Assembly (NCBI GenBank): GCA_013239625.1
Contig: MU053334.1
Coordinates: forward strand, 631,190 to 695,189
Source of the DNA: Lama guanicoe
Lineage: Eukaryota
Direction of reading: 5' to 3'
DNA length: 64,000 nucleotides
Shown here: piece after piece, positions 49,501-55,500 of the stretch
How the letters are laid out: each line of letters begins with the position of its first letter
How positions within the stretch are numbered: the stretch's first letter is position 1
Program-made: the position numbers and the translations under genes
The notes under the pieces: model-generated
Told to the model about the DNA's origin: nothing
Databases searched by the model: none
The model's input: the letters and a program-made list of their open reading frames with translations, nothing else

Positions 49501-52500
49501 GGGCGTGGGCGGCCGCCTGTCGTGACTTCTGCTCTGCCTTCCAGGATGGGGTCAGGCGTGTACTGCCCCAGGTCACCAGGAAGCCCCTCCTCGTGGCCCT
49601 TACCCACCTGCTGCTGCTCCTTGGCCTCTGCTTACTCTTTGGCTTGGCCACTTGTCGCCACAACAGGCCACACCCGCTGGGGCTGGAGGGGTCCTGGGGC
49701 TGATGGTGGTGCCAGGCACCCCACAAAGCCTGGCCAGGCCATGCTGCCTAGCAGGGCACCAGGGCAGGGTGCGCAGTGGCCCCGCGCTCTGCTGCCGGAC
49801 CCCCCTCACGGGTGTGTGCCCTGGCTTGGGGCCAGGCAGGCTGTGCCCAGCTCGGAGCTGCGAGGTCGGCCTCCCGGGCCGCCTGGCAGGGCTGCGTCAG
49901 TAACTCTGTTTTCTCGCTTTGTTCCCGCTGTAGTAAAGCAATGTTCAGTAAAAGCCTGGATATCGCTGAAGCCCACCCCCAATTCAGCAGAGAAGACAGG
50001 TATACACCCTGCCCACCCACCCCGCCCCCAGCCCCCAAGATGGCGGCGGGCCTGGCGGCATGGCAGCGGGCCTGGCGGCAGGGCTGCGCCCCTCCCATCC
50101 AGCAAGCCGGGGGAGGGGCCCAGGAGGCGGCGTGGGGCTGCTGGGGTGAGGCTGGCGGTCAGCCTGAGTGGGGCCGGGAGACTCAGACTCTCCCTGCCCT
50201 GGGACCCCTGTGCTGCAGCTGGTAAGGCCCCTCCCCTGGCCTGCCCTTGCCCTGTGGTCAGTGGGCCTCTGTGCCCCGGCTGACATTCCCTCCCCCATCC
50301 CACATTGGCCCGTGTCCTCAGGCTACCCTGCTGCCCACAAGGGCCAGAGTGGTGGTGGTGGCCCAAGATGGCTGCGGGCTCCCCAGGAAGGGACAGGAGT
50401 GCCCACACTGGGGAGTCTCGGCTCAGGGCCCGGCCTCCGAGTGCCACTCGCTCTGTGCCCCTCCCTGGCTGCCCTCCTGCTGGCACCACCCTTCCTGCAA
50501 GTCAGTGTCCAGGGGCCGCTCGGTTAGACAGCAGGGCGTGGACACAGCTTCGTCCCCTCCCCCACTGCTGCTTTTCTGCTTTCCTTGTGGCGGCAGCAGG
50601 CTCATGGCTGGCTTGTGGCCACTGTCCTGCCGGCCGAGGCTGCTGGGGTGGGCGCCAGCTGGGACTGACTGGCCCCTCTGCAGCATCTGAAAGCTTTGGG
50701 CCCAGGCCTGGCTCTGGGTGTGGTACTGGCCGCGGGCCGGCGGGGCTGAGGACGCTGAGAGCTGGGTCTGCACCGCACCCTGTTCCGTGGCTGCACCAGG
50801 CTCGGGGGAATTGGAGGGTCACTGCCTTGGGGCCCCAGCCCACAGGTGCTGGGGACTGGCCAGCGTGGGCCCGGCTCTGCCCCGTGGCCCAGGGGCTGAG
50901 CTGCAGCGTGGGCAGGTGGGTGGGCTGGTGGTGGTGTGGACGGACGGCCTTCACTCTTTGTCCTCTTCTCTCCTGTGGCTGCCTCGACCCCTCCGGCTTC
51001 CTTCCTCTAAGGATGGCAGGTGCCGGCGCCCAGGGGTGAGCGGGCGTTTGCTTTCTCTCGAGGCCGCGCATTGTGGTGGAGCGAGGCCCGCAGGCCTGGC
51101 CCTGCCCTGAGAGGTGTCCAGCTCCTGCCCTGAGGGGGTGGCAGCTGTCTGTGTGTCTTGGCTGGGCACACTGGACCAGTGGCCTTCCTTCTGGCCATGC
51201 CCAGGTCTGCAGGCTGAATGGGGCCAGGTGTGGGCAGAGTCCACCTCCTGCTGATGCCCATCCCAGCTGTGTCTTGCCCAGGCTCTCATGGTGTGAGCGA
51301 CGGGAGGGCCATGGGCAGCTCTGGGCCGGGCAGGGTGGCTGTGGGTGTGGAGGGGCTGGGCTGGTGCCAGCTGGTGCCACACGCCTGAGTGTGAGGTGCA
51401 GGACTTGGGGCCGTGACAGCTCAGCCTTGTGGCGGGGGGGGGTCAGCCAGGCTCAGGGCAGCCGGGATGCGGGGAGTGCAGCCTGTGCAGGGGCGCAAGT
51501 CTGTGCATGGAGGCCCCCGCCTCCCCTCATCCCTCCGTTCACCCAGGCTCCCGAGATTCTCGCTAAGGGCTCCTCTGTGCTGCCCTGGGCCTGTGCAGGG
51601 AAGGAGCCACCAGCCACCCACTGGGGGGCTCTGATGGGGCCCCCAAGGGGCTGTGGGTTCTCCTGGGCCTGCTGAGAGGTGGGGTGGTGATGGCAGGACG
51701 GCCCTGGTCATGGCCAGGTGTGCACCAGACCAGGTCAGCCTCGGGGCTCTCAGCCAGGGCTCCAGGCCTCTCGGAGGGCCCACCTGGGGAAGGCTGGGAC
51801 CCCTTCCGGATCTTAGCCGCCCCCCCCACGCCTGTGTCCCCAGGTCTAGGTCCATCAGCGGTGCCTCCTCAGGCCTCTCCACCAGCCCACTCAGCAGCCC
51901 CCGGGTGAGTGACGCTGCCCTGCCTCCGCCCCCGGTGCACACCAGGGTGGGCGGCTTGGCGGACCCCCGCCTGCTGCTGGGCTGCCGCGTGGCGGCGGCT
52001 GCTCCTCTGCGGGCTCCGGCTCCTTGCTAACTGCACGTTTTTTTGTTTTGTCGTTTGTTTTCTCGTGTGTTGTTTTCTTTTGTGGCAAACGCTCCCCCTC
52101 CCATGCCTGCCTGCCCCCACTTGTCCTGGTTTGCGGTCCCCCGTGCTGTGTGTGTATGCGGTGGGGGGTGGGGCATGCGCTGTGGCTGCCTGCCTGGTGG
52201 GTGCCCCGGTTCTCTCCCTCCTGCCCTCTGCGCCTGCCCCGTAGCCTGTTAGAAAGTTTGTCCTGCCTCCCCCGCCCCCCGAGGTCCCCTTCGTGGCCTG
52301 CTCCCCAGCCACCTCCATGGAGCCGGAAGCTTGCCGGAGCGCCTCTCGGCCCGGACACATCCTCCCTCCACAGGCCGCCCCGCGGCCCAACCCCAAGACC
52401 CAGACCTTGCCGAGCAAGGCCAAGCTGACTGACAAGCCGCTGCAGGGCACCAAGTCCAACCCATTCCCGGCTGGCACCCAGGCCCGGCCCCCTGTCCCGG

Positions 52501-55500
52501 GGTGCCTCAGCCCCCAGCTGGCCCTGCCCCCAGGCCCACCTGCCCTGCCGGCCCCTGCCCGGCTCCCACCCGCTGGGACTGAACCAAACACCAAATCTGT
52601 CCCCACCATACAGGTGACCCCTCACCCCTCTCCGAGGGGCAGTCCCCTCCCTACCCCCAAGGGGACGCCCGTGCACACGCCCAAGGAGAGCCCGGCTGGC
52701 ACGCCCAACCCCACGCCACCGTCCAGCCCCAGTGTGGGCGGGGTGCCCTGGAGGACACGGCTCAATTCCATCAAGAACAGTTTCCTGGGGTCACCCCGCT
52801 TCCACCGCCGGAAACTGCAAGGTGAGAGTGTCTGGAGGTGGTGAGGTGTGCAGTGAGGGGGCTGCAGGGGAGCACCACCCATCCTGGCCAGCTGGGCAGG
52901 AGGGGTTGGGTTTGGAGGAGCTGCTGCTGCCCTTTGGTGGTTCATCCTGTGTCCATAAGGCAGTGCCAGGGGCCCACTCGGCACCGAGATGCCCATCTGG
53001 CAGGCGTGGCCTTGGGATCCCTGGCTCTCTTGTTCCCCTTTCGCCTCAGGTGGGGCTGCCTGGGCCCCATGGAGGAGAGAGGGCCAGTGGGTGGGTGTGG
53101 GTGTGGATGATCAGGAAGCCCACAGGACTAGGACAGAGGTGGGCAGCCTGCCCCTGTGTGCTGCGTGCCGAGGGTCAGTTGGCACTGGTCGGCCACCAGG
53201 GACCACCAGCCGCACAGCACAGCCGCCAGGTGGGGCGTGGGGGGCAGGTGTCATCTGTCCCTGGATAGCAGGGCTGGCTGGAGACCAGAGAAGGCCTGGT
53301 CCAGTTCAGCACCAGGAGGCAGGACAGCTCCCTGGGGCCGAGGCTCCTGCAGCTACAGCTGTGGCCAGGGGCCGGGGGCTGACCTGTGTGTGGGTGCTGT
53401 GGACAGCGCCCTGGCTCTGCAGTACAGGGGCCCTGGGGGGAAAGGGTGGCGTGGTCACACCTTCTCTCCCTGTCCCTCCCTTGTGCATAGTTCCGACGCC
53501 CGAGGAAATGTCCAACCTGACTCCGGAGTCGTCCCCAGAGTAAGTCCCCAGGTTGAGTCAGCTGTTACCTCCCTCCCAGTGCCTGGATGCAGACTGTGGG
53601 GCCGTGGGGGATCCTCCCACGTGTCAGGCCAGGGGGATCCATGGAGGGCTATGGAGCCCTCTGGTCCTTCTCTTTATGGCCATCTGCTTGTCCCCGGGCC
53701 CCTCTCAGTGCTGGTATCCCTGCATCTCCACCTTGAGTGCCAGGCTGGGGGCGTGGGGCGGGGAGGGAGCTGCTCTTCCCAGCTCTGCTCAGAAGCCACA
53801 GACTGGCGGGGAGCCTGGGGCTGGGGGCAGCAAGGGACAGCATGGCCATGCCTTGGAGTGACAGTCCACATCTGCTGAGAGCCCTGGCCTCCACACGGTG
53901 GAGGAGGGGGGAAGCCCTTGGTGGCCAGGCATGCGGTGCCTGCAAGGGGCAGCCTCCGCCGGGGGGGGCACTGGTGTAGATGGGCTGCCCAGCAGCGAGC
54001 ACAGCCCAGAGTGTGGCCAGACACCTGGATGGAGGGTTCAGGGAGGAGGTGTCAGAAGAGGAAAAGGCATGGAGCGGCTGGCAGGAACACATGTCCAGGG
54101 GAGGGTGGCCTTGGCTGGGGCCAGGACAGACCGAGCCCTTGGCTCACTGTCGTGCAAGAGGAGGATACGGGGCTGCAGTCCATCCTGGACGGTCTGGACG
54201 CCAAGTTCCGTGTGTGTGGGGTGAAGACTCCGCAGAGGCCCCACCCCCTGCTCTCCCCACCTCAAGCGTGAGAGTGAAATGCAGAGGGGCAGACGCAGGG
54301 CAGGGCCGCCGTGACCTCACAGGCAGCCTCTGGAGACAGGCAGGTGGGCCGGCTGCCATCACCACGTCCAGGTTGCGCAGGGCCTGCAGCCACAGCAGGT
54401 GTGTCGGGTGCGGAGCCCCGCGTCAGGGTCATGGGCACGCGGGCAGCCGGCCCGGAGTGCAGGGATTCGGGGCCTCTGCCGACCCGCTGGTGACCTGTCA
54501 GGCAGTCTTCTGCTGTCATCAGACACTTTCACGACTGCGTCTGTAACGTAATTGTTACGTATTTCCCAAAAGTTAAAAAACTGCCCACAGCACCCCAGTG
54601 CGACGGTGCGGGTGGCTGGGGCCTCTCCTTCCGGTTCTCGAGTCCTTTGGTGACCTCGCCCCCTTCCTGAGGATTCTGGCTGGTGCCTGTCCCCAGTGGG
54701 TGTGGCTGATGGGAAGGAGCAGACCTGGGTGGCCCCAGGGGGCGCGGTGCACCCCCCAGCGCCTGCTTCTACAGACAATGTGCCCTCCTGCCCTGAGCCC
54801 TGCCAGTCAAGGCCCCAGAGGGATGAGCCCCTGTGTGTGGGGCTGCGGTGTTCGGGAGCCGGCAGGCACGCCTGTGGGGCTGGCCTGTCTGAGGCTGCGG
54901 GTCCTGGAGGCAGGAACTTCCAGCTGGGGGCCGCTGCACCCCTGAGTCTGATCTGCTGGCTGCAGGCCGGGACTTGGGCCTGTCTCCACCTTGCAGTCTT
55001 GAGAATTCTGTCTTCCGGGAACTCTCAGCCTCCGGCCCTAAGGCTTTAGACGATCAGACAGGGCCCGCCGTGTCTTGGAGGGAGACCTGCTGTGCTTGGA
55101 GTCTGGAGCCCACCCCAAAGTTCCTCTCAAGAAGCAACATCCAATGCTTGGCCACACAGGCCCAGCTGATGCCGGGTCAGGCCTTCCTGGCCTACCCAGG
55201 CTTCTCTCACACCAGATGCCGAACTGCTGGCGTCCCACAGCACACAGCTGAGCTTCCACTGTTACTCCTCGTCGAGGGAGGAGAGGGCAGGCGCCCCATC
55301 CGTGAGCTCCCCAGCCTGCGCCCCCGAGCTCCAAACACCCCGCAGAGCCCACAGCATGTGAAGGAAGTGGAGGTGGCCCCGTGCCGGTGTGGGGTCAGAA
55401 AGGACCTGTGTCCCTGCGTCTCTGCGTCTGCTGTCGGGGATCCTGGGCCAGACACAGAGGCCAACTCCAGCCACAGGAGCAGAAAGGGCCCTGGAGGGCA

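Follow-up and report, generated by a model that had tools for sequence, protein, structure and literature searches.

An ancient coding segment, probably an alternatively included 5' part of BRSK2 exon 14, in Lama guanicoe and its candidate distant branch point

Introduction

AG-exclusion zones of at least 150 nucleotides (nt) were counted by Gooding and colleagues in 165 of 67,334 introns, and in the examples given in the accessible text of their paper a consensus branch site stands towards the upstream end of the zone (PMC1431707). Here we describe such a zone in BRSK2, the gene of the kinase SAD-A, within a stretch of 64,000 nt of Lama guanicoe DNA (NCBI GenBank assembly GCA_013239625.1, contig MU053334.1, positions 631,190 to 695,189 of the forward strand), which is called the window below and is numbered from its first letter. 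The zone lies in intron 13, ahead of a 369-nt segment at 52245-52613. We consider it very likely that this segment belongs to a single long coding exon of BRSK2 (52245-52821) served by competing acceptors, of which it forms an alternatively spliced 5' portion, and that the long form is the ancestral one.

Two further bodies of work bear on what such a segment might do. The autoinhibitory sequence of mouse SAD-A occupies residues 519-530, and the role of the linker between the UBA domain and this sequence is left open in the accessible part of that structural study (PMC4686854). The triplet TQT is described as the usual anchor of the motifs bound by LC8/DYNLL, whose favourable flanks are a hydrogen-bonding residue at -4, a positively charged one at -3 and a strand-breaking P, D or E at +2, prolines ahead of the anchor being disfavoured (PMC6607443, accessible text).

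Results

A conserved reading frame ahead of exon 14

The window evidently holds a camelid BRSK2 locus. Translation of 52245-52613 gives a peptide that matches a BRSK2 model from alpaca (Vicugna pacos; P0001) at 100% identity and one from dromedary (P0002) at 98%, and a tblastn search with the full-length bat BRSK2 model P0003 placed the gene at about 40425-62327 of the plus strand. The features surrounding intron 13 are the following.

51844..51904, plus strand: BRSK2 exon 13, ending …SSPR in phase 0 (translation and tblastn with P0003)
51905..51910, plus strand: 5' splice site of intron 13, GTGAGT (sequence)
51946..52242, plus strand: AG-free, A-poor zone of 297 nt with 11 A
52027..52031, plus strand: CTAAC, the best candidate branch site, putative branch A at 52030, 213 nt before the AG
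52036..52085, plus strand: U-rich tract directly 3' of the candidate branch site, 66% T and 24% G
52176..52241, plus strand: A-free stretch that takes in the C/T-rich tract ahead of the upstream acceptor (base content)
52243..52244, plus strand: upstream (long-form) 3' splice site AG (sequence, and junction in matched proteins)
52245..52613, plus strand: alternative 5' part of exon 14, 123 codons, 27% proline, predicted disordered
52372..52373, plus strand: second in-frame AG; an exon from 52374 would give 80 codons
52389..52469, plus strand: most conserved block, N49-P75, with the TQT triplet at 52398-52406 (14-sequence alignment)
52578..52613, plus strand: second conserved block, T112-Q123, ending at the standard acceptor (alignment)
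52612..52613, plus strand: standard (short-form) 3' splice site AG, within the long exon, pyrimidine fraction 0.61
52614..52821, plus strand: exon 14 core (VTPHPSPRG…RFHRRKLQ), the donor GTGAGA following 52821

The 369 nt of 52245-52613 form 123 stop-free codons in frame with exon 14 (52614-52821), and an in-frame TAG at 52242-44 ends the open frame precisely at the upstream acceptor. This phase-0 frame, running from 52245 into exon 14 and matching an exon 13 that ends in phase 0, had been put forward in a first-pass annotation of the window made from its letters; it is present, and on re-checking the sequence every coordinate in that annotation proved right or within one base. The short form presumably uses the AG at 52612-13, which is consistent with the residue numbering in the structural work on mouse SAD-A.

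Searched alone against a large protein collection at E<=1e-3, the 123-aa (amino acid) peptide matched 45 proteins among 1543 candidates, all of them BRSK2-type kinases. The full insert with the exact junction SSPR/P[VIA]R[KR] (a slash marks an exon boundary here and below) is found in 38 of the 45, which are BRSK2 models from placentals, koala, a caecilian, sturgeon, gar, teleosts, sharks and rays, the other seven being alpaca, two cetacean, two mouse-like rodent, goat and ferret models. The two cetacean models begin the insert 13 residues later (SSPR/LPFVAC), at an in-frame AG at 52282-52283, and the goat model joins at SSPR/SNPLP, at the in-frame AG 52453-52454; the ferret model has a garbled segment in place of a clean insert. 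An 80-aa version starting after the second in-frame AG had also been envisaged: that AG is indeed there at 52372-73, but it is used by a single model of the 45, P0039 from a mouse-like rodent, P0040 showing a related odd join. The minority joins (the 80-aa version, LPFVAC and SNPLP) are treated here as probable model variants, not as established isoforms.

In order to reach more distant lineages, the stingray insert was used as the query of a second search, which gave 38 matches among 188 candidates from sharks, rays, a caecilian, sturgeon, paddlefish, reedfish, gar, two teleosts, koala and placentals. At the protein level, the comparison across vertebrate BRSK2 proposed in the first-pass annotation as a check returned models with the insert from sharks to mammals. 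An alignment of 14 jawed-vertebrate inserts has 27 invariant columns, among them N49, P50, T52, Q53, T54, L55, P56 and K58, then P65, L66 and Q67, and finally K117, S118, P120, I122 and Q123, so that the conserved parts of the insert read NPKTQTLP.K…KPLQ.TKSNPLP and TKS(I/V)P.IQ. Of 122 insert-bearing proteins, 117 have the TQT triplet, which is THT in Denticeps and Rhinoraja, and 121 match [TPA][KR]S[IV]P. Insert length varies from 108 to 156 residues across lineages, every length change preserving the frame. A neutral intron would not be expected to retain such frame-keeping blocks from sharks to mammals; we conclude from these comparisons that 52245-52613 is a genuine, ancient coding segment joined at the predicted acceptor. 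The length of the open frame carries little weight in this argument, because long stop-free stretches also occur antisense to the insert in DNA of about 67% G+C (299 and 250 codons on the minus strand of 51869-52790, taken to be a by-product of the high G+C); the case for coding rests on conservation.

The corresponding exon of BRSK1

In the BRSK1 gene of the same genome, the equivalent of exon 13 ends …SSPLSSPR/GTAAGG and the next exon runs unbroken over 123 codons from SPVFSFSPEPG…SPTSKTQTLPSRG… to RFHRRKMQ, with SKTQTLPSR inside it. A BLASTP comparison of BRSK1 with BRSK2 aligned the exon-14 part only (49% identity, E 1e-15). The 7-mer KTQTLPS nevertheless stands upstream of this part in both genes, and a shared word of at least seven residues arose in 1 of 5000 shuffles. 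The placing of KTQTLPS at the equivalent position of BRSK1 in the first-pass annotation was therefore accurate, the motif being present in a BRSK1 exon that starts at the same position, and the ancestral origin proposed there for the extension is borne out both by this positional counterpart and by the inserts from sharks to mammals. Homology of the BRSK2 extension to the constitutive BRSK1 exon is thus supported by position and, through KTQTLPS, in sequence. As the upstream acceptor of BRSK2 is the positional counterpart of the BRSK1 acceptor, the 'standard' acceptor would lie inside an exon that is both older and longer. In BRSK1 just 35 nt separate the exon start from the closest AG upstream of it; of the two copies, only BRSK2 therefore has the long AG-free zone.

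The long isoform in catalogues, and possible presence of the insert in RNA

The long isoform had been described in the first-pass annotation as hidden. This did not stand: it is already annotated in human RefSeq as isoform 6 (NP_001427594.1, 812 aa) and isoform 7 (NP_001427595.1, 790 aa), both with a 122-aa insert and the same junction, and in dozens of predicted or Ensembl-derived models. NP_ accessions denote reviewed or transcript-based RefSeq records. Many predicted XP_ models, Ensembl-derived models and UniProt/TrEMBL entries for cow and donkey carry the insert as well, and in a cluster look-up all 57 full-length members examined (P0046-P0102) had an insert of 122-134 aa, while a further member (P0103), a fragment of 67 aa, lacks it. 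Between the alpaca peptide and the human model P0026 the identity is 79%. The sequence of the window fits both marks of the BRSK2 long isoform, namely the junction of exon 13 with the upstream acceptor and an insert of about 122-123 aa with both conserved blocks. The long isoform is real, ancient and already catalogued; it is not new as an object.

Two more alternative coding exons, of about 22 aa (49932-50000) and about 16 aa (60965-61015), occur in some BRSK2 models only, and various combinations of them with the exon-14 insert would account for the variety of model lengths (790-895 aa, human).

For the animal itself, 24 sequencing runs were listed, and 20 of these, from nine studies, contain 52245-52821 or part of it. 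Five runs recorded as RNA, from two studies labelled as reproductive-system samples, contain 0.59-0.70 of 61 words sampled from 52245-52821, of which exon 14 makes up 208 of 577 nt (36%). This suggests that the insert is present in RNA, in so far as word matching does not separate spliced mRNA from unspliced RNA or DNA carry-over.

Neither the segment nor its function was treated in any paper found, and no paper linking BRSK kinases to LC8 turned up, in literature searches that took in few subscription journals. Two candidates were rejected: the BRSK2 splicing event of the CAR-SPLASH paper is exon 19, the 'exon 14' of that paper belonging to MEGF8, and the sole full-text match to KTQTLP in these searches is a VWCE peptide, not BRSK.

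The AG-free zone and the two acceptors

Consecutive AGs at 51944 and 52243 leave a gap of 299 nt, the second longest of the window after one spanning N, and the absence of AG over 51946-52242 noticed in the first-pass annotation holds. The zone is only 3.7% A, and 273 of 20,000 shuffles of its own bases were likewise free of AG (P=0.014; mean 3.5 AG); with 11 A in 297 nt, the absence of AG is therefore mostly a matter of A-poverty. Measured between AGs, the 299 nt exceed the 150 nt before the acceptor that mark an AG-exclusion zone, much of this length coming from the scarcity of A, and a consensus branch site with a pyrimidine tract is found near the upstream end of the zone, none lying close to the acceptor. 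The sequence tgctaAc, with its A at 52030, is the sole match to yUnAy in 51905-52244. It had been singled out in the first-pass annotation together with the U-rich tract after it, and both are present (66% T over 50 nt). The nearest A 5' of the AG at 52243 is at 52175, 68 nt off, none lying within 67 nt, so that any adenosine branch serving this acceptor would count as distant. We regard a distant branch point at 52030 as plausible.

Over -25..-3 the upstream acceptor has a pyrimidine fraction of 0.83 and the standard one a fraction of 0.61, in agreement with the pyrimidine tract reported at AG 52243-44 and the poor one at the standard acceptor. The latter, at 52612-13, has A residues 17-34 nt upstream. 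A search for Rfam families over 51000-53500 found none.

The window has 558 N in all. Its longest AG-free gap (560 nt, 3026-3586) lies far upstream of BRSK2 and takes in a run of N that is probably an assembly gap. BRSK2 itself has another AG-free, C/T-rich zone, of 272 nt (46900-47172, in region 46900-47205), ahead of a 32-nt exon (CTAGAGCAC…GGTATAT); a perfect TACTAAC stands at 47146-52, some 22 nt from the acceptor of that exon.

The insert peptide

Proline accounts for 33 of the 123 residues of the insert (27%). No Pfam family matches the 192-aa long exon and no PDB chain matches it at E<=1. AlphaFold2 predicted no secondary structure for the insert (mean predicted local distance difference test, pLDDT, 60.9; predicted template modelling score 0.14). 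In the long bat model P0003, the kinase domain covers residues 20-270, the UBA domain 300-342, the insert 453-575 and the KA1 domain 669-781, with the autoinhibitory sequence at 664. Relative to the mouse numbering, this last position is offset by 145, the sum of the 123-aa insert and the 22-aa alternative exon, and the form used in the literature appears to be the short one. The insert would lengthen the tether that joins the UBA domain to the autoinhibitory sequence, and the two short blocks conserved in jawed vertebrates would most likely serve as docking or regulatory motifs.

Residues N72-F74 (52458-52466) read NPF in alpaca and human and NPL in most species (NPF in 20 of 122). NPF is an EH-domain-type tripeptide.

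The TQT triplet as a possible LC8/DYNLL anchor

The TQT triplet of the insert lies in a predicted disordered region, where an LC8 anchor would be expected, but its flanks in BRSK2 are not the favourable ones. In BRSK1 the anchor is preceded by P at -5, T at -4 and S at -3. In order to assess binding, a complex was predicted with ESMFold2 between insert residues 35-79 and a dimer of an LC8 stand-in, an 89-aa LC8-type metagenome protein (P0333), along with three controls. The complex scored 0.54 (0.57, 0.54 and 0.25 in three runs) against 0.07 for the best control, the LC8 runs agreeing in at least 82% of contacts with a partner pLDDT of at least 48. In the calibration of this score, which does not extend to peptides, 51 of 78 solved complexes passed the mark, as did 2 of 108 mismatched pairs; with scores of 0.60 or below, only 5 of the 78 solved complexes passed, and all 4 passing mismatches (of 180) were in this range. 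Since similar LC8-peptide complexes are already solved, the pass may reflect the memory of the model, and the prediction lends weak support only to LC8 binding.

Other partners were discarded. A full-length LC8-like match in the same genome as the window (C5323:22692481-22692729) has two in-frame TAG stops and is probably a processed pseudogene, and the LC8 representatives from the protein search have mis-modelled N-termini. The LC8 genes that are intact, on C4569 and C6178, each consist of two coding exons.

The LC8 partner tables in the supplements of PMC5746249 (10 files) and PMC6607443 (4 files) hold no BRSK entry, and the main text of the preprint 10.1101/2023.09.15.557927 makes no mention of BRSK.

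Discussion

The arrangement that we favour is one of two competing 3' splice sites, in which use of the AG at 52243-44 would give the long exon and 123 additional residues, and use of the AG at 52612-13 the short exon 14, the long exon being the ancestral arrangement. The upstream acceptor would depend on a branch point at least 68 nt off, for which CTAAC (52030) with its U-tract, 213 nt upstream, is the best candidate; scanning would then proceed from CTAAC through the AG-free zone to the first AG, at 52243-44. The internal acceptor would use an ordinary branch point among the A residues 17-34 nt upstream of it.

One objection would be that the segment is ordinary intron read through by gene predictors, an annotation artefact or a retained intron without protein function. 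Both strands are rich here in long stop-free stretches (250-299 codons), which speaks for this together with the automatic origin of most supporting entries, but we find it scarcely credible in view of blocks without change between sharks and mammals, of length differences that are always in frame, of the KTQTLPS shared with the homologous BRSK1 exon and the existence of human NP_ accessions; the same junction moreover recurs in independent sources (NCBI X-isoforms, UniProt/TrEMBL entries for cow, donkey and cat, and submitters' 'hypothetical protein' models). A more serious alternative accepts the upstream acceptor as real and places its branch elsewhere, at a non-consensus A at 52175, 52156, 52119 or 52103 (68-140 nt upstream) or at a residue other than adenosine. 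Mammalian branch sites are degenerate and the zone contains eleven A residues; a proximal TACTAAC sits beside the 272-nt AG-free zone elsewhere in BRSK2. In addition, only one-half to one-fifth of zones of at least 100 nt are estimated to mark distant branch points (PMC1431707, accessible text). Yet no nearer A matches yUnAy or precedes a U-rich tract, whereas CTAAC followed by 50 nt of 66% T is the classic arrangement, and the nearest A, being 68 nt away, would be distant regardless. We therefore hold a branch outside CTAAC to be possible, if rather unlikely.

Several observations weigh against our interpretation and need to be set beside it. Most of the supporting proteins are computational models selected for containing the insert, so that the abundance of the long form is not inferable from them, and the absence of short-junction proteins (0 of 125 BRSK2-like proteins) is a consequence of the search design. 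The RNA-run words for 52245-52821 could stem from unspliced RNA or DNA. The alpaca model P0001 has the full insert but an aberrant join upstream of it; this model, which is without exon 13 and in which about 230 N-terminal residues and an internal stretch are unlike any other BRSK2, looks like a faulty gene model. As to the branch point, the fold of 52020-52250 is not more stable than that of shuffled sequences (z=-0.83; 39 of 200 shuffles as stable), and a long AG-free zone is by itself no proof of a distant branch point, because the zone at 46900-47172 has a proximal TACTAAC. Large AG-exclusion zones are also described as enriched for cassette exons, not acceptor-site isoforms (PMC1431707, accessible text). 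The one-half to one-fifth estimate given above counts on this side as well.

Two specific functions have been considered for the peptide. The consensus of class I EVH1 ligands is [FLWY]PPPP, and the first-pass annotation had read LPPPPPE as similar to an Ena/VASP ligand that might link SAD-A to actin regulators. The motif is there, residues 6-16 fitting the consensus, and it is retained in placentals; its core, however, is not conserved among orthologues, [FLWY]PPPP occurring in only 59 of the 122 insert-bearing proteins and in none outside placentals. Rodents have LPPLPP, and koala, caecilian, ray-finned fishes, sharks and rays have PPQ(P/S/T)P; the invariant columns are located elsewhere in the insert. 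Because LPPPPP is confined to placentals the actin connection is weak, and we judge it very unlikely. An LC8/DYNLL-binding site in the invariant TQT-centred block is a somewhat better lead, though still an improbable one in our estimation. If it were right, the choice of splice site would set whether the LC8 hub is able to dimerise or tether SAD-A: BRSK1 would have the site constitutively and BRSK2 only when the upstream acceptor is used, while a UBA-to-autoinhibitory tether 123 residues longer would at the same time alter autoinhibition. The prolines ahead of the anchor and the change of Q to H in Denticeps and Rhinoraja speak against it, as does conservation that reaches well past the 8-residue LC8 motif.

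Whatever its partner, the insert amounts to a 123-residue, deeply conserved and presumably splice-controlled change to the linker that connects the UBA domain with the autoinhibitory sequence of SAD-A. The segment 52245-52613 is presumably intronic in transcript NM_001256627.2. If that is so, variants in it would be classed as deep-intronic, even though isoforms 6 and 7 have the segment as coding sequence. NM_001256627.2 is the transcript used in reports of the BRSK2 neurodevelopmental disorder (PMC13743746, accessible text). A mutation creating an AG in the 299-nt zone could furthermore disturb use of the long form, a vulnerability argued for such zones in the accessible text of PMC1431707.

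The BRSK2 site can finally be compared with the systems that resemble it most. With PTB exon 11, GABBR1 exon 23 and alpha-tropomyosin exon 3, as presented in the accessible text of PMC1431707, it shares an AG-free zone of at least 150 nt, an upstream branch site with a pyrimidine tract and the lack of a good branch site near the acceptor. The known distant-branch exons in that text are mostly cassette or mutually exclusive ones, whereas BRSK2 would have two acceptors of one exon and a branch point deduced from sequence. Like the LC8/DYNLL motifs of PMC6607443 and PMC3078936, the TQT of BRSK2 stands in a segment predicted to be disordered, and both the paralogues and the jawed vertebrates have conserved it; unlike the favourable ones, it has prolines at -3 and -5 and a leucine at +2, only the N at -4 fitting. 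The exon of BRSK1 (SAD-B) and the long exon of BRSK2 both start after …SSPR in phase 0, carry KTQTLPS upstream of an S/T-P-rich part and end RFHRRK(L/M)Q, but BRSK1 has a conventional acceptor and is without the KPLQ.TKSNPLP and TKSIPIIQ blocks. Closest of all are human isoforms 6 and 7, which have the junction SSPR/PIRKLVLPPPPP…, the conserved blocks and an insert of 122 aa as against 123 aa; there is no essential difference between them and the window, which is their camelid orthologue.

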